From Patescibacteria group bacterium (lineage in GTDB: Bacteria; Patescibacteriota; Minisyncoccia; Phycocordibacterales; PALSA-1337): a stretch of 64,000 bases of DNA. Location of the stretch: NCBI GenBank assembly GCA_040388415.1, contig JAZKBV010000001.1, positions 138,369 to 202,368 of the forward strand, in the 5' to 3' direction. Shown here piece by piece: positions 3,496-64,000 of this stretch. The notes under the pieces were generated by a model, which made no database searches, was not told the DNA's origin, and saw only the letters and a list, made by a program, of their open reading frames with translations. Every line of letters starts with the position of its first letter. The stretch's first letter is position 1. The translations under genes and the position numbers were made by a program.

Positions 3496-4284
3496 CTATT
3501 TTTTCTGGCTAATCACCAAAAAAAGAAACTTACGTTTAGTAAAAAACCGTTCAAAAAATATCGTGAATATTTGTATGAATATTTTAGGTGTCTCAACAAA
3601 TAAAGGGCTGCCGAGGTTATATACCTTAGCAGTGTGAAGCCCGGATCCTAATTGTTTTGCCGCGCTTGAAAGCATGTCTTCTATATCCTTGGGTCCGTAT
3701 ATTTTTTCAGTATCGAGCCTATATCCAGGGATGTGTTTCAGTATTTTTTTAAATCGAGGGCGAGCCAACAGCTCAGCCTTTTTTATGGGGAGAGAATTGA
3801 AATTAGGGATAGCGATTCCTATGTGTCCGCCGATTTTGGTTACGCGCAGCATTTCTTTTAGAATCTGAATAACAAGTTCTTTATCGTAGTGTTCAATTGT
3901 TCCTATGTTCCAAGTCAAATCAAAATTATTATCAGGAAAAGGCATCGAGAACATGTTTCCTTCAACATACGAGACTTTTTTACAACCATGTATCGTTGCT
4001 AATTTTTCTGCCAGTCTAAGTCCTTCAGTAGAAATATCCAGCAATGTTATATTTTTATTCGACAAAGATAATAAAGTCGCTTTTCCAGACCCGCAACCAG
4101 CTTCGAGGATCGATGCATTTGCAGGTATTGATATCGAGTTTACACAATCTCTGATTTGTTCGTAATAGTATCTCCACCAATAGGAAGAAAATTTTTCAGT
4201 AGATTCTCTTGCCAGCTCTTCGGAAAATATTTTATTCCAAGTCCGTTTTTCATGCTCTAAAGCCGCCTTAATTTTTTCCTGCAT
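3496..4284 (-). CDS. class I SAM-dependent methyltransferase
   Basis: Motif I 'ILEAGCGSGKATL' with an acidic post-I 'LLDIS'. The ORF track gives 3496..4395. An internal ATG at 4284 (MQEKIKAALE) removes a 100-bp overlap with the upstream gene and leaves an 11-bp gap, so the two genes look operonic. Confidence 0.75.
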   Translation of the reverse strand: MQEKIKAALEHEKRTWNKIFSEELARESTEKFSSYWWRYYYEQIRDCVNSISIPANASILEAGCGSGKATLLSLSNKNITLLDISTEGLRLAEKLATIHGCKKVSYVEGNMFSMPFPDNNFDLTWNIGTIEHYDKELVIQILKEMLRVTKIGGHIGIAIPNFNSLPIKKAELLARPRFKKILKHIPGYRLDTEKIYGPKDIEDMLSSAAKQLGSGLHTAKVYNLGSPLFVETPKIFIQIFTIFFERFFTKRKFLFLVISQKK

Positions 4285-5443: not shown

Positions 5444-5559
5444 TGTTTGTGTGCCTATAGACTAGCACAATCTGTTTTTTATACAACAATTGGTAATATG
5501 TCAATACCGGTCATATACAACACCAATTAATATAATGCTATCATCTAGCCATATGAACT
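5444..5559. promoter_or_regulatory. divergent promoter region with two ~20-nt direct repeats
   Basis: 'TTATACAACAATTGGTAATAT' (~5478-5498) and 'CATATACAACACCAATTAATAT' (~5512-5533). The region lies between divergently oriented operons. Confidence 0.4.
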
Positions 5560-8960: not shown

Positions 8961-10577
8961 ATGCTCTCTATCTTCAGTTACTACAGCCTCTCTCTGTTTT
9001 TGGGAGGAATCGTAGCTCTCTTCTCGGGCATATTTGTATTTCTCAATAACTCCAAGAAAATGGAAAGCATCGTTTGGTTGCTTTTGACCATTTCGACGGC
9101 GATCTGGAGCTTTGGATACTACATCATGATCATTACTCCGGACAAGCACGTTGCTTGGATCAGCGATGTCATTTTGCATATCGGCGCATCATTCATACCT
9201 TTCTTCTATCTTTTCTTTATAATAGCCATTACGAATGTCTTCGGGCAGTATAAGAAACTCATTTACTGCCTGTCTCCAATAGCGATCTTTTTTGTGCTTG
9301 TGACGCCAAGCTCATTATTTGTTACTGATGTATATCAAAAAGGACCATTCAGTTATGCTCCTAATGCTGGGATACTTTATACGCCATTCACGGCTTATTT
9401 CTTTATAGTAGTTATAATCGCTTTGGCCATATTGCTCATTCAGATCAAGAAATCTGAGCGCAAAGAGGCGCTTCGCCTAAAATTCATCTTCGGGTCGTCG
9501 ATCTTCGGTTTCATTGGCGGCAGCAGCGTTTTCTTTCTAACGTTCAATGTCTTCGTACCGCCATTTCCTGTCATACTATTCGCTTTTTATCCGATGATCA
9601 TCGCATATGCAGTGCTACGCTATAATCTTTTTGACGTAAGAATAATCACGGCAGAATTGCTCACTGCGACGATTTGGATCACTCTTTTGTTCCGTACAGT
9701 TCTTTCAAATAATGGCACCGACCAGGTCATTAGCGGTATCATTCTCGCGATTACAGTCTTGTTCGGTATCTGGCTTGTGCGAAATGTATACCACGAGATC
9801 ACTCAACGCGAAAAGATCGAGAAGCTCGCCAAAGACCTCGAATCTGCCAATGTCCGCCTGACTGAGCTCGATCGCCAAAAGTCAGAGTTCGTCTCATTTG
9901 CGACGCATCAGCTCCGCGCGCCACTCACCGCAATGAAAGGCTATGCCTCGATGATCCTCGATGGCGATATGGGTAAGCTGGCCGATGAGGCCAAGCTCGG
10001 CGTATCGCGCATATACGACTCAGCCCAGACGCTCACCAACATCGTCGACGATTATCTCAACATCACACGCATCGAGCTCGGTACGATGAAGTATGCTTTT
10101 GAGACGATCAACTGGCGCACCCTTATCGATGATATCCTCGCTGAGCTCAAGCCGAATATCGAAAAGTCGAAGCTCGCTTTCTCATTCAATGTTCAAGAAG
10201 AGAATATGGATTATCGCATCACTGCTGACCGCGACAAGTTCAAACAAGTCATCGCCAACCTCATCGACAACTCGATGAAATATACGCCGAAGGGTACAGT
10301 GGCGCTGTCGCTTTCGTTCGACCGCGCGCGTCGCAAGTACGTCTTTATGATCAAAGATACCGGCATCGGCATCGCTCCTGAAGTCTTGCCGCATCTCTTC
10401 GCTAAGTGGAGCCGTGCAGGTAATGCTAACAAGACGAATATCAAAGGCACTGGTCTCGGCCTTTTCGTGGCAAAAGAGATCATTACTGCGCATCATGGCG
10501 AAGTCCGTGCAGAATCTCCTGGCGAAGGGAAGGGCTCAACATTCATCGTGGAGATGGAGCCATTTGGGAAAATGTAA
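8961..10577 (+). CDS. sensor histidine kinase, multi-pass membrane
   Basis: About 6 N-terminal TM helices. HisKA H-box 'ATHQLRAPLTAM'. HATPase N/G boxes 'NLIDNSMKYT', 'DTGIGI' and 'GTGLGL'. Confidence 0.85.
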   Translation: MLSIFSYYSLSLFLGGIVALFSGIFVFLNNSKKMESIVWLLLTISTAIWSFGYYIMIITPDKHVAWISDVILHIGASFIPFFYLFFIIAITNVFGQYKKLIYCLSPIAIFFVLVTPSSLFVTDVYQKGPFSYAPNAGILYTPFTAYFFIVVIIALAILLIQIKKSERKEALRLKFIFGSSIFGFIGGSSVFFLTFNVFVPPFPVILFAFYPMIIAYAVLRYNLFDVRIITAELLTATIWITLLFRTVLSNNGTDQVISGIILAITVLFGIWLVRNVYHEITQREKIEKLAKDLESANVRLTELDRQKSEFVSFATHQLRAPLTAMKGYASMILDGDMGKLADEAKLGVSRIYDSAQTLTNIVDDYLNITRIELGTMKYAFETINWRTLIDDILAELKPNIEKSKLAFSFNVQEENMDYRITADRDKFKQVIANLIDNSMKYTPKGTVALSLSFDRARRKYVFMIKDTGIGIAPEVLPHLFAKWSRAGNANKTNIKGTGLGLFVAKEIITAHHGEVRAESPGEGKGSTFIVEMEPFGKM

Positions 10578-10579
10578 GC

Positions 10580-10612
10580 GTAACACGAATCTACGAATAA
10601 ACGCACGAATAC
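10580..10612. repeat. ACGAAT tandem-repeat element (copy 1)
   Basis: 'aCACGAATctACGAATaaacgcACGAATac'. Near-identical to 54771-54800 and related to 40245-40262. Confidence 0.5.
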
Positions 10613-10654
10613 GGTCGGCGCTCAAAGGACGTTGCGCCGACATGATTTCGCTAA
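10613..10654. repeat. 35-nt conserved intergenic element 'AAAGGACGTTGCGC.GACATGATT..C...AATCAAAAA' (copy 1)
   Basis: Matches 48825-48862 (after pepF) with few mismatches. In both places it is followed by a hairpin. Confidence 0.5.
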
Positions 10655-10682
10655 ATCAAAAAGCCCCGAACAGTGCGTTCGG
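10655..10682. terminator. intrinsic terminator hairpin (A-tract/hairpin, serves convergent genes)
   Basis: 'aaaaaGCCCCGAACagtgcGTTCGGGGtgtgtt'. Confidence 0.6.
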
Positions 10683-25754: not shown

Positions 25755-25804
25755 CAATACGAATTTGCCAATAAAACGAATGGTACGAAAAATACAAATA
25801 AAAA

Positions 25805-25840
25805 ACCGAGCGGATGAGCCGTTCGGTTTGTGTTTGTGCC
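25805..25840. terminator. bidirectional intrinsic terminator
   Basis: 'aaaaaaCCGAGCGGatgagCCGTTCGGtttgtgtttg' (one G.U pair), flanked by an A tract and a T tract. Confidence 0.6.
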
Positions 25841-29387: not shown

Positions 29388-29417
29388 AATTAGGTAAATG
29401 AGGCTATAATAGTCCGC

Positions 29418-35180: not shown

Positions 35181-38100
35181 ATGATTATCCCCATGAATAA
35201 AGACGCGAAATACGATCCGGCCAAGATAGAAAAGAAATGGCAGAAGAAGTGGACCAAGGATAAGCTCTATCAGTCAAAAGAAGACCCAAAGAAAGAAAAA
35301 TTCTTTGTGCTCGACATGTTTCCATATCCGTCTGGTGAAGGACTGCACGTCGGCCACCCAAAGGGTTATATCGCCACCGATATCATCTCTCGTTTTCAGC
35401 GCATGCACGGCAAGTCTGTCTTGCACCCGATGGGCTTTGATGCCTTCGGTTTGCCTGCTGAGAACTATGCCATCAAGATGAAAAAGAATCCGATGGATTT
35501 GACTGAGGTGAATGTGAATAGGTTTAAAGAACAATTAGAGATCATTGGTCTTGACTATGATTGGTCACGTGAGGTCAATACAACTGATCCTGCATATTAC
35601 ACGTGGACGCAGTGGATCTTTTTGCAGTTGTATAAAAAAGGTTTGGCATACGAATCATTTGAGCCGATCAACTGGTGTCCTGTCGACAAGACCGGTTTGG
35701 CAAACGAGGATGTCGTCGATGGTCGTTGTGAACGTTGTGGAACGCTCGTGGAGAAGAGGCCGATGCGCCAGTGGGTCCTCAAGATTACTGATTATGCAGA
35801 TCGATTGTTGCAGGACTTGGATATGGTACGTGCGCCAGTGTTTACCAACACTGTTGGTTCAGATGCATTTCGTAAAGATATGCCAGTGAGCGAGCGTCAC
35901 GTTGTTCACTGTCTCATCAAGCATTGGAGCGAAGACAAATATTTGTGCATGAAGTGGAAGAAAAATGATTGGCGTGGTTTTGTCATCGGTGGTATCGAAG
36001 ATGGTGAGTCTGCCGAGACGACTGCTATCCGCGAAGTGATGGAAGAGACTGGGTATAAAAATGTTGTTTTCAAGAAAATCGTCGGCACGATGACTGCAGA
36101 GTTCTATCAGCAGATCAAAAAGGAAAATCGCCGTGCGTTCATTACAACTGTATATCTTGAACTTCAGAATGGCGAGCAAAGTGACGTGCCTCAACATGAA
36201 AAAGATATTCAAGATATGGAATGGGTGCCTGCTGCTCAGGTCCGTGATTTTGTGAACAGAGATGATCTCAAATATGAATGGGATGTCTTTACGGGTGCAG
36301 TAAAGCAGGCCCCGTTATTGGATTGGCCCGCATCTATCAAAGAAGCTCAGCGAAATTGGATCGGCAAATCAGAGGGTGCAGAAATAGAATTTACATTGAA
36401 GTTGGCAAATAATAAGCCTCGCTTTGTGCTGATTCATGGATATAAAGAAAGTCCACAAGAGGGATATCTCCCTTGGCTCAAAAAAGAACTCGAGAAGCGT
36501 GGTCATGAAGTGCAGGTTCCTGAATTGCCAAATCCTGCGAATCCAAAAGAGTCTGAGCAAGTAGACTATGTCATCAATAACTGCACTATCGATGAGAATA
36601 CGGTCATCGTTGCACATAGTCTCGGCGGTGTAGTTGCTCAAAAAGTTATTATGAAATTGAACAAGCAGATTTCAGGACTTGTTCTCGTTGGCAACGCAAT
36701 CACCCCAGGTTTTTCAAAAGATACAAAGTCGCGTCCATTCCACAAAAACTTCACCTGGGATTTTGACTATGCGCGCATCAACAAGCTCGCACAAGGAAGA
36801 GTCGCAGTTCTCTCTGATACAAAAGAGATTCATCGCAGTGCTTTTTTGAAAGATCTAGCGACAAAATTGTCAGCAGCTTTCATTGAAGTAGATGCAGTCA
36901 AAGAGCACTTCAATGGTTCAGAGGAGCCTGCAGTTTTGAAGTGTGTCACGCCGACAGTCAGTGTGTTCACCACACGTCCCGATACGATCTTTGGTGTTAC
37001 GTACATCGTCCTTGCTCCTGAACATCCATGGGTAAGTGAATTATTGCCACAGTTGGAGAATGGATCAGAAGTCGAAGCATACGTTGCGCAAGCTAAGCTT
37101 GCCACCGAGATCGAGCGCACTGATGCAAAGAAGGAAAAGACTGGTGTTGAGCTCAAGGGTATCAAGGCAACCAATCCAGCCAATGGCGAAGAAGTACCCG
37201 TATGGATCGCTGACTATGTTCTCGCAGACTACGGTACTGGCGTTGTCATGGCTGTGCCTGCGCATGATGAAAGAGACTTTGCTTTTGCAAAGAAGTTTGG
37301 GTTGGGAGTGAAGCAAGTTGTTGCTCCGCTTATTACTCGTACAGGCGATGAAGATGCATGGAGAGCACATGAACCAGAAGCTAAAAGACCGACTGTTGTG
37401 TGTATTGTTAAACATTGGTCAGATGATAAGTATCTTTTTATAAAGAAAAAAATTCTTGATAAAGCGGTTGTTGCGATTGCTGGCGGTATCGACGGGGAGG
37501 ACACTGTTCAGGCGGGTCAACGTGAGATTCGTGAAGAATCTGGGTATCTCAATACAAAGTTTGTGAGAGATTTGGGCACCCCCGTTTATTATCGATTTTA
37601 TTCAATTACCGGCAAACAGAATCGCATCTCTGAATTGAGGCCGCTTTATTTTGAATTGGTTGATGGTGAAAGAGAAGAGATGTCGGAAAATGAGAAGCAA
37701 CAGCATGAAGAACTATGGCTTTCAAAAGAGGAAATTGATCAATATCTGAAAGGAAGACTATTCAATCCTATTTTTTGGAATCGTCTCAATAATTCTCAGG
37801 AGGCATTTACTGAAGCTGGTATTGTCATCAATTCAGGAAAATTTGACGGTAAAGCATCTGATTCAGTCAAAAAAGACATCACCCTCTCAGTCGGCGGACA
37901 ATGGGTTTCAAAATATAAACTGCGCGACTGGGTTTTCTCACGCCAGCGCTATTGGGGAGAACCAATACCGCTCATTCATTGTAAGAAGTGCGGGGTAGTT
38001 GCTGTACCTGAAAAAGATCTGCCGGTGAAGCTACCAAAGGTGAAGTCATATGAGCCAACAGGCACGGGCGAATCTCCGCTCGCTGATATCCATAAATGGG

Positions 38101-39095
38101 TCAATGTGAAATGTCCAAAGTGTAAGTCGCCTGCAAAGCGCGAGACGAACACTATGCCTCAGTGGGCAGGTTCATCATGGTACTACCTCCGTTACATGGA
38201 TCCAAAGAACAAGAATACTCTCGTCGATCCAAAGAAAGAAAAATATTGGGCACCAGTTGACATGTATGTCGGCGGTGCAGAGCATGCCACTCGCCATCTC
38301 ATCTATGCACGCTTCTGGCATAAGTTCTTGTATGACATCGGCACGGTCTCTACCACTGAGCCATTCATCAAGCTCCAGCATGTCGGTCTCATCATGGGTG
38401 AAGATGGTCGCAAGATGTCCAAGCGCTTTGGTAACGTCGTCAATCCCGATGATATCGTCAAAGCATATGGTGCCGATACGCTCCGTCTCTATGAGATGTT
38501 CATGGGTCCTTTTGATCAGCAGATAGCATGGAGCACATCGAGCATGGTTGGTCCAAGGAGATTTATCGAGAAGGTGTGGCGCCTCAGAGAAAAAGTTATT
38601 GATTTGAAAATGAAGAGTGCAAGTTCGTCACCAGAAGCTGATCGCGTTCTCCATAAAACGATAAAAAAAGTGACGGTAGATATCAATGCGCTTTCATTCA
38701 ACACCGCAGTAAGCACGCTCATGATCTCCGTCAACGAACTTGAGAAAGCCACGTCGCTCACTCGTGACCAATTCGAGATTTTACTGAAATTGCTTGCACC
38801 GTTTGCGCCTCATGTCGCTGAAGAGCTCTGGTATTCAGTTGGCAACAAAACATCAGTTCATATATCTAGTTGGCCTGTCTATAATGAAGCGTTGGTAGTT
38901 GATTCAGAAGTACAGATCATCGTTCAAGTAAATGGTAAAGTGCGTGCATCCTTCAAGGCTGAAACGGGCTCAACTGAAGCTCAATTGGAGGCACATGCAA
39001 AAGAAATCCCTGAAGTAAAAAAGTGGATTGAAGGGAAGGGGATAAAGAAAGTTATCGTGGTAAAAGGAAAGCTCGTCAGCATCGTGGTCGCCTAA
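35181..39095 (+). CDS. leuS: leucine--tRNA ligase with three inserted domains (2x Nudix, 1x Ser-hydrolase)
   Basis: HIGH 'PYPSGEGLHVGHP', ZN-1 'GRCERCGT', CP1 'VFTTRPDT' ... 'GTGVVMAVPAHDERDF', 'KLRDWVFSRQRYWGEPIP', and KMSKS 'KMSKRFGN'. Insert 1 (aa ~215-378) carries a Nudix box 'GGIEDGESAETTAIREVMEETGY'. Insert 2 (aa ~405-590) reads 'FVLIHGY...LPWLKKEL...VIVAHSLGGVVA...VLSDTKE', the RBBP9/YdeN Ser-hydrolase pattern. Insert 3 (aa ~725-870) carries a Nudix box 'GGIDGEDTVQAGQREIREESGY'. Confidence 0.9.
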   Translation: MIIPMNKDAKYDPAKIEKKWQKKWTKDKLYQSKEDPKKEKFFVLDMFPYPSGEGLHVGHPKGYIATDIISRFQRMHGKSVLHPMGFDAFGLPAENYAIKMKKNPMDLTEVNVNRFKEQLEIIGLDYDWSREVNTTDPAYYTWTQWIFLQLYKKGLAYESFEPINWCPVDKTGLANEDVVDGRCERCGTLVEKRPMRQWVLKITDYADRLLQDLDMVRAPVFTNTVGSDAFRKDMPVSERHVVHCLIKHWSEDKYLCMKWKKNDWRGFVIGGIEDGESAETTAIREVMEETGYKNVVFKKIVGTMTAEFYQQIKKENRRAFITTVYLELQNGEQSDVPQHEKDIQDMEWVPAAQVRDFVNRDDLKYEWDVFTGAVKQAPLLDWPASIKEAQRNWIGKSEGAEIEFTLKLANNKPRFVLIHGYKESPQEGYLPWLKKELEKRGHEVQVPELPNPANPKESEQVDYVINNCTIDENTVIVAHSLGGVVAQKVIMKLNKQISGLVLVGNAITPGFSKDTKSRPFHKNFTWDFDYARINKLAQGRVAVLSDTKEIHRSAFLKDLATKLSAAFIEVDAVKEHFNGSEEPAVLKCVTPTVSVFTTRPDTIFGVTYIVLAPEHPWVSELLPQLENGSEVEAYVAQAKLATEIERTDAKKEKTGVELKGIKATNPANGEEVPVWIADYVLADYGTGVVMAVPAHDERDFAFAKKFGLGVKQVVAPLITRTGDEDAWRAHEPEAKRPTVVCIVKHWSDDKYLFIKKKILDKAVVAIAGGIDGEDTVQAGQREIREESGYLNTKFVRDLGTPVYYRFYSITGKQNRISELRPLYFELVDGEREEMSENEKQQHEELWLSKEEIDQYLKGRLFNPIFWNRLNNSQEAFTEAGIVINSGKFDGKASDSVKKDITLSVGGQWVSKYKLRDWVFSRQRYWGEPIPLIHCKKCGVVAVPEKDLPVKLPKVKSYEPTGTGESPLADIHKWVNVKCPKCKSPAKRETNTMPQWAGSSWYYLRYMDPKNKNTLVDPKKEKYWAPVDMYVGGAEHATRHLIYARFWHKFLYDIGTVSTTEPFIKLQHVGLIMGEDGRKMSKRFGNVVNPDDIVKAYGADTLRLYEMFMGPFDQQIAWSTSSMVGPRRFIEKVWRLREKVIDLKMKSASSSPEADRVLHKTIKKVTVDINALSFNTAVSTLMISVNELEKATSLTRDQFEILLKLLAPFAPHVAEELWYSVGNKTSVHISSWPVYNEALVVDSEVQIIVQVNGKVRASFKAETGSTEAQLEAHAKEIPEVKKWIEGKGIKKVIVVKGKLVSIVVA

Positions 39096-40238: not shown

Positions 40239-40263
40239 GTTAGTACGAATATCGAATAAGATC

Positions 40264-40319
40264 AAAAAGAACAGGAGCGGTACGAATGCAGAAGCATTCT
40301 CACCGCTCCTGTTCTTTTT
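40264..40319 (+). terminator. long nested hairpin / terminator
   Basis: 'AAAAAGAACAGGAGCGGTacGAATGCagaaGCATTCtcACCGCTCCTGTTCTTTTT': an 18-bp outer stem with a perfect 6-bp inner hairpin. An ACGAAT unit sits in the loop. Confidence 0.7.
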
Positions 40320-40372
40320 GGCGCCACTCAAATTAACTTTCATAAATCCTCGCTTGGCGCTATAATATTCGC

Positions 40373-47006: not shown

Positions 47007-48824
47007 TTGAATATGAAAAAAATACCCAAAAATAATAAAAAAGCTGAATCTAGAATCTGGAATCTTGGTTTGCTGTATTCTTCAGCAACTGATCCTCAGA
47101 TAGAAAAAGATGTTGTTGCCTTTGAGGGTATAGTTGAATCATTTGCTCAGCAATTTGAACCAAAAGAAGGGAGCGTGAAATCTTTTTTAAGTGATAACTC
47201 AACTCTACTCGAAGCGCTGAAACAATACGAAAAAATTGCAGCCAATTCCGCTATACGTGCGATGCGTTATTTTCATTTCATTAAAGATACTAACGCAAGC
47301 AGTACATTCGCATCCGCGCAATATGATTTGCTTGAAAATCGTTTAACAAGTGCTTCTAATAAGATTACTTTTTTTGGAGTATTACTCGGTAAAGTATCAA
47401 ATAGCAGACAAAAAGAAATACTTTCAAATGATGTATTTTCTCACTTTAAAGTTTTTCTCGAAAGATTGTTCGATGATGCAAAACATACTCTGACAGTCTC
47501 GGAAGAAAAAATCCTTAATCTTAAATCATTGCCAGGGCACAGTATGTGGGTCTCAGCAACTAGCCGTATTCTGAATGTTAAAAGTGTTAAATGGCAAAAT
47601 AAGGAACTACCACTTGCTGCTGCCATGCAGAAAATAGCTACTTTACCTACGACCTCGCAAAGGAAAAAATTGGCCGGTTTGGTGAATGAAGCATGGAAGA
47701 CAGTTGCACCTGTCGCAGAGGCTGAGATCAATGCTATTTTTACTAACAAAAAAATTGACGATGAGCTCCGTGGATTTCCTGAACCATATTCGGGAACAGT
47801 GCTTAGTTATCGCAATGATCCAAAAGTCGTCGATCAATTAAGAAAAGTTGTGACTGATCATGTTCATATTTCTCATGATTTTCATAGACTTAAAGCGCGC
47901 TTATTGAAGCAAAAGAAGCTCGGCTACTATGATCGTGCCGCAAAAATCGGGGCAACCAAGTCGACGTATCCATTTGATGAAACAATATCAAAACTTAAAA
48001 ATATTTTTGGTAAGCTTAATCCAAAATTCAGTGACATCCTCGATAGTTACATTAAGAATGGTCAGATGGACGTCTTCCCTCGAGCTGGAAAACGTAGTGG
48101 TGCTTACTGTGCAAGTGCATTTGGTAATCCTACTTTTGTTCTGCTCAATCATACAGACAACTTGTACTCGTTCATGACCTGCGCGCATGAGCTCGGCCAT
48201 GCGATACATGGTGAACTATCTGAAGGTCAAGGTGCATTGTATTGCGATTATTCATATTCAACAGCCGAGACCGCGAGCACACTTTTTGAAGCTATTGGCT
48301 TTGAGGGTATCTATGATTCGCTATCAGATAAGGAAAAGATTATCGCACTGCACGATCGCATAAATGATGACGTTGCAACAATATTTCGTCAAATCGCAGG
48401 ATTTAATTTTGAGTTAGAGCTTCACAAGACAATACGTGCAAAAGGGTATATCTCAAAAGAGGAAATCGTCGATATTCATAACAAGAATATGTCTGCCTAT
48501 TTGGGTCCAGTATTTGATCTTACAAAAGATGATGGATATTTCTTTGTCACGTGGGAGCATATTCGCTATTTCTTCTATATGTATACCTATGCCTATGGGA
48601 CGCTCGTATCCAAGGCGCTCTTACGCAAATATCGCAAGGATCCGAGCTTCTGGAAAAATATAGAGAAATTCCTTTTGGCTGGAGGTAAAGATTCACCAGA
48701 AAATATATTTAAGGAGATCGGCATCGATGTTTCTTCTCCTGAATTCTTCAAAGAAGGTCTCATGGAAATCGCTGATGATATCAAAGAGCTCGATCGTTTG
48801 ACGAAGAAACATGTCCGCGCTTAA
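47007..48824 (+). CDS. pepF: M3-family oligoendopeptidase F
   Basis: 605 aa. Zinc motif 'HELGHAIHG' with a downstream Glu. The overall length and pattern match PepF. Confidence 0.8.
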   Translation: MNMKKIPKNNKKAESRIWNLGLLYSSATDPQIEKDVVAFEGIVESFAQQFEPKEGSVKSFLSDNSTLLEALKQYEKIAANSAIRAMRYFHFIKDTNASSTFASAQYDLLENRLTSASNKITFFGVLLGKVSNSRQKEILSNDVFSHFKVFLERLFDDAKHTLTVSEEKILNLKSLPGHSMWVSATSRILNVKSVKWQNKELPLAAAMQKIATLPTTSQRKKLAGLVNEAWKTVAPVAEAEINAIFTNKKIDDELRGFPEPYSGTVLSYRNDPKVVDQLRKVVTDHVHISHDFHRLKARLLKQKKLGYYDRAAKIGATKSTYPFDETISKLKNIFGKLNPKFSDILDSYIKNGQMDVFPRAGKRSGAYCASAFGNPTFVLLNHTDNLYSFMTCAHELGHAIHGELSEGQGALYCDYSYSTAETASTLFEAIGFEGIYDSLSDKEKIIALHDRINDDVATIFRQIAGFNFELELHKTIRAKGYISKEEIVDIHNKNMSAYLGPVFDLTKDDGYFFVTWEHIRYFFYMYTYAYGTLVSKALLRKYRKDPSFWKNIEKFLLAGGKDSPENIFKEIGIDVSSPEFFKEGLMEIADDIKELDRLTKKHVRA

Positions 48825-48862
48825 AGGACGTTGCGCAGACATGATTCCACAGAATCAAAAAT
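48825..48862. repeat. 35-nt conserved intergenic element (copy 2)
   Basis: 'AAAGGACGTTGCGCAGACATGATTCCACAGAATCAAAAA'. Compare 10613-10654. Confidence 0.5.
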
Positions 48863-54385: not shown

Positions 54386-54766
54386 ATGAGAATCCTCGGT
54401 ATTACACTCCCAGAAAATAAGAGAATGGAAATCGCATTGACGGTTGTCTACGGTATTGGACGACCTCGTGCTCTCCATATTTTGAAGACAGTCGAAGTTG
54501 ATCCATCAGTCAAGCCAAAGGATCTCACTGTTGATCAGGAAAATGCGATTCGTAAGCTCATTGAAGGCTTCAAGATTGAAGGTGACCTCAAGCGTGAAGT
54601 TGCCGGTAACATCAAGCGTCTCAAGGATATCAAGACGTACCGTGGCAATCGTCACGCCCGTCATCTACCAGCTCGCGGTCAGCGCACCAAGACCAACTCT
54701 CGTACCGTCCGCGGTAACGTAAGAAAGACCATGGGATCTGGTCGCCGTAAGGAAGAGAAGACGTAG
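54386..54766 (+). CDS. rpsM: 30S ribosomal protein uS13
   Basis: 'MRILGITLPENKRMEIALTVVYGIGRPRA'. Confidence 0.95.
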   Translation: MRILGITLPENKRMEIALTVVYGIGRPRALHILKTVEVDPSVKPKDLTVDQENAIRKLIEGFKIEGDLKREVAGNIKRLKDIKTYRGNRHARHLPARGQRTKTNSRTVRGNVRKTMGSGRRKEEKT

Positions 54767-54815
54767 GCATGACACGAATCTACGAATCAAGCACGAATAC
54801 TACGAATCACGAATA
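54767..54815. repeat. ACGAAT tandem-repeat element (copy 2, five units)
   Basis: 'aCACGAATctACGAATcaagcACGAATactACGAATcACGAATacc'. Confidence 0.5.
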
Positions 54816-54844
54816 CCACAAATAATTAAACAAATAACAAACAC

Positions 54845-63769: not shown

Positions 63770-64000
63770 ATGCTAAAACCTACCATTCCCTCAAAATTTG
63801 TAGAGAGAATCATTACCTCACAGACTGGTGAGCAGTATCGTGTTGTGTTTCTGGTCACTCTCGTCAATGGGGAAGTGAAGGCACGAGTTGTTGGCGCACA
63901 ATTGATATCAAAAGTTCAGCTACTAGAAGATAAGAGCTATGAGCTAAGAGCTAAGAGATATGAAAGAAATACAGCTGTGCTTTGTTTACCTGGCGCCTCT
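63770..64000 (+). CDS. hypothetical protein, 3'-partial
   Basis: ATG at 63770. The frame stays open to the window end (77 codons). Confidence 0.35.
   Translation, partial: MLKPTIPSKFVERIITSQTGEQYRVVFLVTLVNGEVKARVVGAQLISKVQLLEDKSYELRAKRYERNTAVLCLPGAS

Follow-up and report, generated by a model that had tools for sequence, protein, structure and literature searches.

ACGAAT arrays at four intergenic sites

The sequence examined for the source genome is a 64-kb window of a Patescibacteria MAG, and all window counts given below refer to these 64 kb. In its rpsM-rpsK-rpsD-rpoA operon, the stop codon TAG of rpsM (54764-54766) is directly followed on the + strand by a 7-nt leader, GCATGAC (54767-54773), and then by the main array, in which five perfect ACGAAT units (54774-54814, + strand) start at 54774, 54782, 54793, 54802 and 54809, that is with periods of 8, 11, 9 and 7 nt. 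The end of this array stands 31 nt from the ATG of rpsK. Two degenerate units of the form ACAAAT (54818-54835, + strand) bring the array to seven units and overlap the ancestral A-rich leader of rpsK. RNA folding predicts no structure for the rpsM array (-7.4 kcal/mol, z = -1.2). An 18-codon reading frame, MTRIYESSTNTTNHEYHK, also passes through it (54770-54826); its ATG comes 3 nt behind the stop of rpsM and its end precedes the rpsK start by 18 nt, near the native spacing of the closest relative (L001); this frame is probably there by chance, and it could preserve translational coupling.

A second array lies directly after the stop codon of a 7TM histidine kinase, in a convergent intergenic region, and is composed of the leader GCGTAAC, the counterpart of GCATGAC, and three perfect units (10578-10610, + strand; unit starts at 10585, 10593 and 10605, periods of 8 and 12 nt). 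RNA folding gave weak local pairing only. The histidine-kinase and rpsM sites share 34 nt at 82% identity, a segment that takes in the last codons of both genes as well as the 7-nt leaders behind their stop codons (family D8), and their longest exact match, ACACGAATCTACGAAT, measures 16 nt and not the 15 nt first reported. The histidine-kinase site is identical in two independent assemblies (L322 and L323), and a histidine kinase of 100% identity is carried by contig JAWVHA010005490.1 of GCA_040384245.1, while no exact match was obtained for the rpsM protein. No array was found after the orthologous gene of another genome (L321, 71% identity), nor anywhere in the 21.6 kb available around it.

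Immediately 3' of this array, a hairpin, GGTCGGCGC...GCGCCGAC (10612-10643, + strand), begins a separate repeat of 49 nt (family D2). This second dispersed intergenic repeat occurs at 10614-10662 and 48813-48861 with 86% identity between the copies, and its layout is that of a hairpin, GTCGGCGC...GCGCCGAC, followed by ATGATTYC...AATCAAAAA and finally by the terminator of the gene that converges on it from the minus strand. The genes that flank the two copies are unrelated (BLASTP E = 1.6), and the copy at 48813-48861 overlaps the last codons of an M3 peptidase. A Logan contig of the same genome stops 79 nt past the histidine-kinase stop codon, inside the D2 repeat.

After uvrA, a degenerate array (25759-25799, + strand), absent from the list of the earlier note, reads ACGAAT, CCAAT, ACGAAT, ACGAAA and ACAAAT and is followed by a terminator-like hairpin (25803-25829, + strand; -20 kcal/mol, z = -4.3). 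The remaining site, located 6 nt 3' of the stop codon of a Sigma70_r4/HARE-HTH protein, is a marginal copy, ACGAAT-at-CGAAT (40245-40257, + strand), ahead of a strong terminator hairpin of 19+6 bp (40263-40320, + strand; -42 kcal/mol, z = -9.1) with a further ACGAAT in its apical part (40282-40287). Since the apical 6 bp of this terminator consist of GAATGC paired with GCATTC, the unit at 40282 is partly paired rather than free in a loop; of the description given earlier for 40245-40300, the sequence itself thus stands, while the array proves marginal and the placement in the loop only partly correct. All three sequences quoted in the earlier note, after rpsM, the histidine kinase and the sigma-r4 protein, are present where it had placed them.

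The hexamer is not abundant in the window. Both strands together hold 38 ACGAAT, slightly below the expectation from shuffled sequences (45.4 +/- 6.6), whereas clusters of at least three units were seen twice and never appeared in 1000 dinucleotide-preserving shuffles. Twelve of the 38 copies are intergenic, in the 8% of the window left between genes by a simple non-overlapping ORF map (binomial P = 2.6e-5). A chain test that tolerates a single mismatch in each unit and accepts periods of 6-13 nt recovers three arrays (10585-10610, 25776-25799 and 54774-54835), all on the + strand and intergenic, where 0.23 were expected; it does not recover the site at 40245-40257. As the total is not enriched, the signal lies in the arrangement of the units, their clustering and position, and not in their abundance, so that an excess over base composition holds in this 64-kb window for arrays of three or more units and fails for the hexamer count.

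All four sites are on the + strand, in sense orientation and 4-7 nt 3' of a stop codon; three of them are then followed by a terminator hairpin, and the fourth is the one within the rpsM-rpsK-rpsD-rpoA operon. The genes flanking them are unrelated to each other (7TM histidine kinase; UvrA; Sigma70_r4/HARE-HTH protein; ribosomal protein S13 followed by S11). In the approximately 5 kb recovered beyond the window, no further ACGAAT array was found.

Other features of the window were noted. Near its end, at 63934-63953, a small tandem array of another sequence, GAGCTatGAGCTaaGAGCTaag, is apparently intergenic. The genes of the window have no Shine-Dalgarno sequences and several start codons (gene starts at 29405, 40361, 51363 and 52550 are examples of the pattern) have a TATAAT box 6-8 nt upstream; because of this combination, frequent leaderless mRNAs are suggested for the source organism. 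The leucyl-tRNA synthetase (35181-39095; 1304 aa) carries an inserted NUDIX domain (residues about 260-356) as well as a serine-hydrolase / alpha-beta-hydrolase domain (about 415-578), both within the catalytic core and ahead of the editing domain.

The rpsM-rpsK spacer in related genomes

A search with S13, keeping one genome per species, provided 80 rpsM-centred loci, mostly from Patescibacteria, with a best identity of 93%; these loci were not selected for repeats and consist of about 89% coding DNA. The four nearest relatives by S13 (L001-L004, 93-80% identity) have an rpsM-rpsK spacer of 8-48 nt, compared with 78 nt in the window, and the ACGAAT block is absent from this spacer in all four. 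Because these nearest relatives do not have it, the block is an insertion or expansion specific to the lineage of the window; it separates the rpsM stop codon from the A-rich leader of rpsK, which is conserved. Its absence from the orthologous spacers fits the dispersed repeat that the earlier note had proposed. No target-site duplication was detected when the filled rpsM-rpsK site was compared with the empty one. In two other loci of the set the same spacer holds long unrelated MITE-like inverted repeats (L007, about 3664-3800; L011, about 10376-10560), and small insertions seem to have landed there repeatedly in CPR genomes.

Arrays in other Patescibacteria

RCGAAT/ATTCGY arrays were found in 8 of the 80 loci (L013, L024, L029, L051, L058, L060 and L075 among them). 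Arrays of at least three units number 12 in the whole set, against about 0.2 in block shuffles, and nearly all of them are intergenic. Some loci carry several copies: L060 has four arrays within 12.8 kb and L024 has three, and in both of these the rpsM-rpsK spacer is also occupied by an array. Many copies are two-armed and form ladder hairpins of 6-bp ACGAAU/AUUCGU helices, with folding z-scores of -7.1 in L024 and -4.1 in L029.

In this 80-locus CPR sample, CGAAT is the top CG-containing 5-mer that forms arrays, and arrays based on TAACT, AACTT and AACTA are about as frequent as those of CGAAT in CPR spacers and often abut start codons. Arrays of TAACT, AACTT, AAGTT or AACTA occupy spacers of ribosomal-protein operons in nine loci (L005, L007, L019, L024, L025, L040, L043, L064 and L071), for example at 1465-1483 and 2067-2085 of L043 and at 5525-5546 and 6057-6093 of L025. 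In many cases only a few bases separate them from the start codon that follows, some are two-armed, and they resemble the published TAACTGA repeats (PMC4679880).

Metagenome and viral contigs

A metagenome pattern scan with ACGAATCTACGAATN{1,8}ACGAAT returned at least 120 contigs, and the polarity and period statistics that follow rest on loci chosen by this ACGAAT pattern. The matches listed range from 35 to 69% G+C and come from clusters whose names include Acidobacteria and Anaerolineae. In their common form, 3-8 units of 8 nt stand in tandem and are followed, after a centre of about 24-28 nt, by 2-5 inverted units; the usual unit among the matches listed is the 8-mer YK-ACGAAT, with a spacer that is mostly CT, TT or TG. 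Among the same matches, 107 of about 185 left-arm intervals have the 8-nt period, the arms of two-armed elements converge in 78 cases and diverge in 7, and 16 of 52 pairs of mirrored spacers are complementary, which is not above chance (13.3 expected).

Pairs of nearly identical contigs also differ in their arrays. L244 and L289, 98% identical overall, differ there by exactly 8 nt, and L239 and L292, also 98% identical, by exactly 16 nt, which shows that whole units were gained or lost. The metagenome neighbours among the matches listed are unrelated housekeeping genes (rplK, fusA, secDF, guaB, rplB, nusG) and no recurrent neighbour gene family appears among them; neither was a transposase found between paired arrays in these matches, the genes present there being rplB, nusG, xerC-like, cas2 and similar. 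In seven contigs of 36-42% G+C (L208, L229, L248, L267, L284, L294 and L314), a composite unit of about 60 nt, gtaACGAATtACGAATcccttcgggtACGAATctACGAATttACGAATg, is repeated in tandem up to five times.

The position of the arrays relative to genes was compared outside the window for one-armed arrays lying between co-directional genes (n = 25): 14 are sense and 11 antisense, and several of the antisense ones abut start codons. This distribution argues against a strand-specific 3'-UTR RNA motif. The bias toward gene 3' ends put forward in the earlier note is accordingly complete in the window, where all four sites are in sense orientation after stop codons, and does not hold as a general rule elsewhere.

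In viral contigs the ACGAATCTACGAAT pattern is rare and no commoner than its controls, with 2 matches against 1, 3 and 12 for permuted hexamers; these permuted controls cover viral contigs only. As a first viral scan had mixed coding 9-nt repeats, microsatellites and phage promoter-proximal arrays, no enrichment is claimed from that scan. Several phage contigs (among them L118, L143, L176 and L191) hold three or four CACGAAT units with a period of 9-10 nt, with TTGAAC or GTAACC upstream and a ribosome-binding site and ATG within about 10-20 nt downstream. The motif precedes several genes per contig (positions 1020, 5849 and 6642 of L118; five sites in L191), and this phage CACGAAT array may be regulatory.

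Searches for a mobiliser, an RNA family or an earlier description

Among the ORFs of the 64-kb window scanned with Pfam, neither a transposase nor a Y1/HUH protein was found; a RAYT gene was likewise not found among these ORFs or in the surroundings of the arrays in the metagenome loci (at least 120). More generally, the window and the loci examined yielded no full-length parent element, mobilising enzyme or binding protein. Rfam at the gathering threshold returned only a tRNA in the window, and gathering and permissive scans of the window together with 19 array-bearing loci returned only tRNA, rRNA and meaningless matches to microRNA hairpins. A complete element used as query had no match in a plasmid database, for which masking of low complexity is a possible cause. 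No description of ACGAAT arrays was found in the open-access literature, and we know of no convincing match of ACGAAT to rRNA or tRNA T-loop complementarity, promoter-like readings, Rho sites or known transcription-factor boxes.

Comparison with known repeats

The closest published analogue is provided by the TAACTGA and cyanobacterial STRR heptamers, which like ACGAAT are short non-coding intergenic units present in 2-6 or more copies. Direct repeats of the heptamer TAACTGA are known from Beggiatoaceae, Cyanobacteria and Bacteroidetes (MacGregor 2015, PMC4679880), with no known transfer mechanism and a function that is not known (PMC4679880). Both TAACTGA and ACGAAT are enriched as arrays and not as a single word, both stand next to unrelated genes, including ribosomal-protein operons, in spacers or genomes without Shine-Dalgarno sequences, and both have a patchy occurrence across phyla. 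The ACGAAT arrays share the features that define short intergenic tandem repeats (units of 6-9 nt, direct arrays of at least two units, enrichment of arrays) and depart from the TAACTGA/STRR type, in which contiguous units abut a downstream start codon, by having, in the window, spacers of 1-6 nt and a position after stop codons. TAACTGA units are contiguous 7-mers, mostly directed toward a start codon and ending 1 nt before it, with inverted sets almost absent (PMC4679880), whereas ACGAAT is a hexamer core with variable spacers which lies after stop codons in the window and elsewhere usually has an inverted second arm.

REP units are imperfect palindromes of 20-40 bp that can form a stem-loop, carry a terminal GTAG or CGTC tag, are mobilised by RAYT transposases (Y1 HUH), whose gene they often flank, and are usually species-specific (PMC3733652, PMC3116915). 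Like REP, BIME and REPIN sequences, the ACGAAT arrays are extragenic and transcribed, sit between genes that are co-directional or convergent, are multi-copy and patchy between relatives, and exist in single, paired and clustered forms; an extragenic, multi-copy location that varies between related genomes was thus observed for them as for REP. Their two-armed copies form hairpins of about 80-100 nt, as in REPINs, and the word CTAC, which is the REP tag GTAG read on the opposite strand, is present in many units. This word is not constant, since it occurs in CT-spaced units and is absent from the equally common TT and TG units, and it is not at the foot of a stem. In contrast with REP, each ACGAAT arm is an internal tandem array of 8-mers and the window copies are not palindromic: the rpsM site is unstructured (z = -1.2), and in the two-armed relatives the arms are tandem arrays.

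MITEs, whose ends carry repeated transposase-binding words, share with two-armed ACGAAT copies convergent arms around a short centre, a similar size and insertion polymorphism, but the ACGAAT copies show no target-site duplication and no autonomous parent, and the number of units per arm varies by slippage. Terminal inverted repeats flanked by a target-site duplication, together with a related autonomous element, define MITEs and were not observed here: the window copies have no inverted arm, no duplication distinguishes the filled from the empty site, and no transposase lies between paired arrays. The blocks may be remnants of a miniature mobile element, one of the readings offered in the earlier note.

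Among ribbon-helix-helix operators, the 8-bp met boxes of MetJ and the 7-bp heptads of the omega protein are tandem direct or inverted repeats with a minimum of two units, and such arrays are strictly contiguous and sit at specific promoters of a small regulon. The ACGAAT arrays have tandem units of 7-8 bp, direct and inverted arrangements and the minimum of two units in common with them, but are dispersed at gene ends and irregularly spaced in the window.

TIGR arrays are common in CPR and have a 36-nt period, two spacers of 8-12 nt per unit and an adjacent tas gene with a Nop domain (PMC12045711). Like the ACGAAT arrays, they are short, poorly conserved tandem arrays in CPR that CRISPR finders miss. 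A TIGR-Tas array was rejected here, the period being 7-12 nt, with no edge and loop repeats alternating with 8-12 nt spacers and with rpsM, rpsK, the histidine kinase and uvrA as flanking genes. A CRISPR array, with repeats of 23-50 nt and unique spacers of similar length, was rejected as well for units of 6 nt separated by gaps of 1-6 nt, and the view that the blocks are non-coding and not CRISPR is upheld by this period of 7-12 nt without real spacers. Nor are the arrays intrinsic terminators, in which a T run comes after a G+C-rich hairpin, as they are themselves unpaired and separate hairpins follow at three sites.

Interpretation

The explanation that we consider best, and hold at roughly even confidence, is that the ACGAAT blocks represent a small REP-like or short-tandem-repeat extragenic element, and no gene, CRISPR-like array or structured RNA, and that this element lengthens by slippage and spreads from spacer to spacer through copying. 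The small dispersed REP-like family first suggested for these sites is borne out by the 34-nt segment shared by the histidine-kinase and rpsM sites, by the absence of the block in four relatives and by the patchy, multi-copy occurrence elsewhere. The building block of such an element would be the ACGAAT core with a spacer of 1-6 nt, taking the strict 8-mer form YK-ACGAAT in many other bacteria. Changes of array length by whole units, as observed between near-identical contigs, fit slipped-strand mispairing, and the recurrence of blocks at unrelated spacers within a genome, together with their absence from the same spacer in close relatives, would point to copying between spacers by recombination or by some mobilising activity. 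Blocks would then persist only where they are harmless, which in this packed genome may mean a few bases after a stop codon, upstream of a terminator or of the unstructured leader of the next gene. If the stretch after the stop codon is the only tolerated landing place, this would explain the 3' bias of the window without any 3'-UTR function. Complete elements elsewhere would have an inverted second arm and could fold into a ladder hairpin of 6-bp helices, whereas the window copies are one-armed and would be transcribed as unstructured, A/C-rich and G-poor 3'-UTR or intercistronic RNA. Being one-armed and unstructured, they are unlikely to have the mRNA-stabilising role of REP, and any sequence-specific function of their own is probably slight or lacking.

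It is possible, with clearly lower confidence, that the arrays are multi-site platforms for a sequence-specific protein which recognises ACGAAT, either a DNA binder multimerising head to tail (ribbon-helix-helix or Xis/BldC-type) or a single-strand binder, and that they serve as operators, titration sites or nucleoid landmarks. A platform of this kind would account for the conserved core with variable spacers, for the fixed 8-nt period in most of the metagenome copies listed, for the strong polarity of the arms (78 to 7 in the matches listed) and for the presence of the same core in several phyla; the non-complementarity of mirrored spacers makes the units rather than the hairpin look constrained, and the lack of strand bias in one-armed arrays fits recognition of double-stranded DNA. 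However, no candidate protein and no recurrent neighbour gene was found, the histidine-kinase and uvrA sites are flanked by convergent genes and would not be expected to contain a promoter, the irregular 7-12 nt spacing of the window is poor for cooperative duplex binding, and close relatives keep the same genes without the block, so that there is no conserved regulon. The polarity and period statistics moreover come from pattern-selected loci, and the binding platform was rated below the repeat element because its support is mostly of this origin and the permuted controls are viral only. An action at the RNA level appears unlikely, be it as a 3'-UTR or intercistronic element that protects from exonucleases, adjusts expression ratios within an operon, as E. 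coli REP does when it sets relative expression within operons, or binds an RNA-binding protein or a small RNA. The sense orientation of all four window copies 4-7 nt after a stop codon, the three copies upstream of a terminator, which are almost certainly transcribed, the stable hairpins predicted for two-armed relatives and the frequency of arrays in ribosomal-protein operon spacers would agree with it, but no structure is predicted for the main window array (z = -1.2), orientation to transcription is random elsewhere, the spacers show no compensatory pairing and Rfam has no match in the window or in the array-bearing loci.

Two further readings were judged very improbable. In one, the rpsM-rpsK block would be tolerated or useful through its 18-codon frame (ATG at 54770, TAA at 54824-54826), which would relay ribosomes from rpsM to rpsK without a Shine-Dalgarno sequence, in the manner of the mycobacterial MIRU repeats. 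The position of the ATG 3 nt after the rpsM stop, a TAA 18 nt before the rpsK ATG at a distance near the 18-nt native spacer of L001, and the lack of Shine-Dalgarno sequences in the window genes speak for such a relay; it is contradicted by the histidine-kinase copy, which has neither an ATG (GCGTAAC) nor a downstream gene, by periods of 7-12 nt that are not multiples of 3 and so cannot preserve a frame, and by the likelihood of an 18-codon frame arising by chance in a T-poor sequence. In the other, the sites would be unrelated simple repeats of independent chance origin that form no family, in line with a total hexamer count that is not enriched, with the 0.5-1 chance 16-mer repeats that we estimate for 64 kb and with viral contigs in which the pattern is no commoner than permuted controls. 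This chance origin is equally disfavoured, as not one of 1000 shuffles contained even a single 3-unit cluster where two were observed, the arrays are all intergenic and on the same strand, the histidine-kinase and rpsM sites are similar beyond their units, and arrays recur in independently sampled CPR loci.

Some properties of the wider set go beyond what the repeat element would explain by slippage. A perfectly kept core with spacers that vary in sequence, and in CPR also in length, suggests selection on the core or its recognition, because pure slippage and random decay would not give this combination. Hairpin formation alone would explain neither the polarity of the arms nor the non-complementary spacers, and descent of a selfish element would hardly account for the same core in Patescibacteria, Acidobacteria and Anaerolineae unless they share a factor that recognises it. 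A bolder and rather speculative proposal is that YK-ACGAAT arrays form a distinct, undescribed extragenic class of Patescibacteria, Acidobacteria, Chloroflexi and others, recognised by a widely conserved nucleic-acid-binding protein or by a mobiliser distinct from RAYT and from the classical transposases, in which case the window copies would be half-sites. The layout that bears on this proposal is that of two tandem arms converging on a centre of about 25 nt, with a conserved core, a fixed polarity and spacers that are not complementary.

Taken together, the ACGAAT blocks belong to a kind of intergenic repeat that is widespread yet has been little described, and of which the window holds ordinary, lineage-specific examples. 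Since CPR genomes are very compact, non-coding DNA that spreads between their spacers is informative on how repeats are generated and tolerated. If the blocks are only slippage-prone selfish DNA, their main use would be as strain markers, and they would call for caution in assembly and annotation. The more interesting lead is the wider family of polar 8-nt arrays found across phyla: if a binding factor common to these phyla does exist, it would represent an unrecognised protein-nucleic acid system that could be approached in cultivable Acidobacteria or Chloroflexi.
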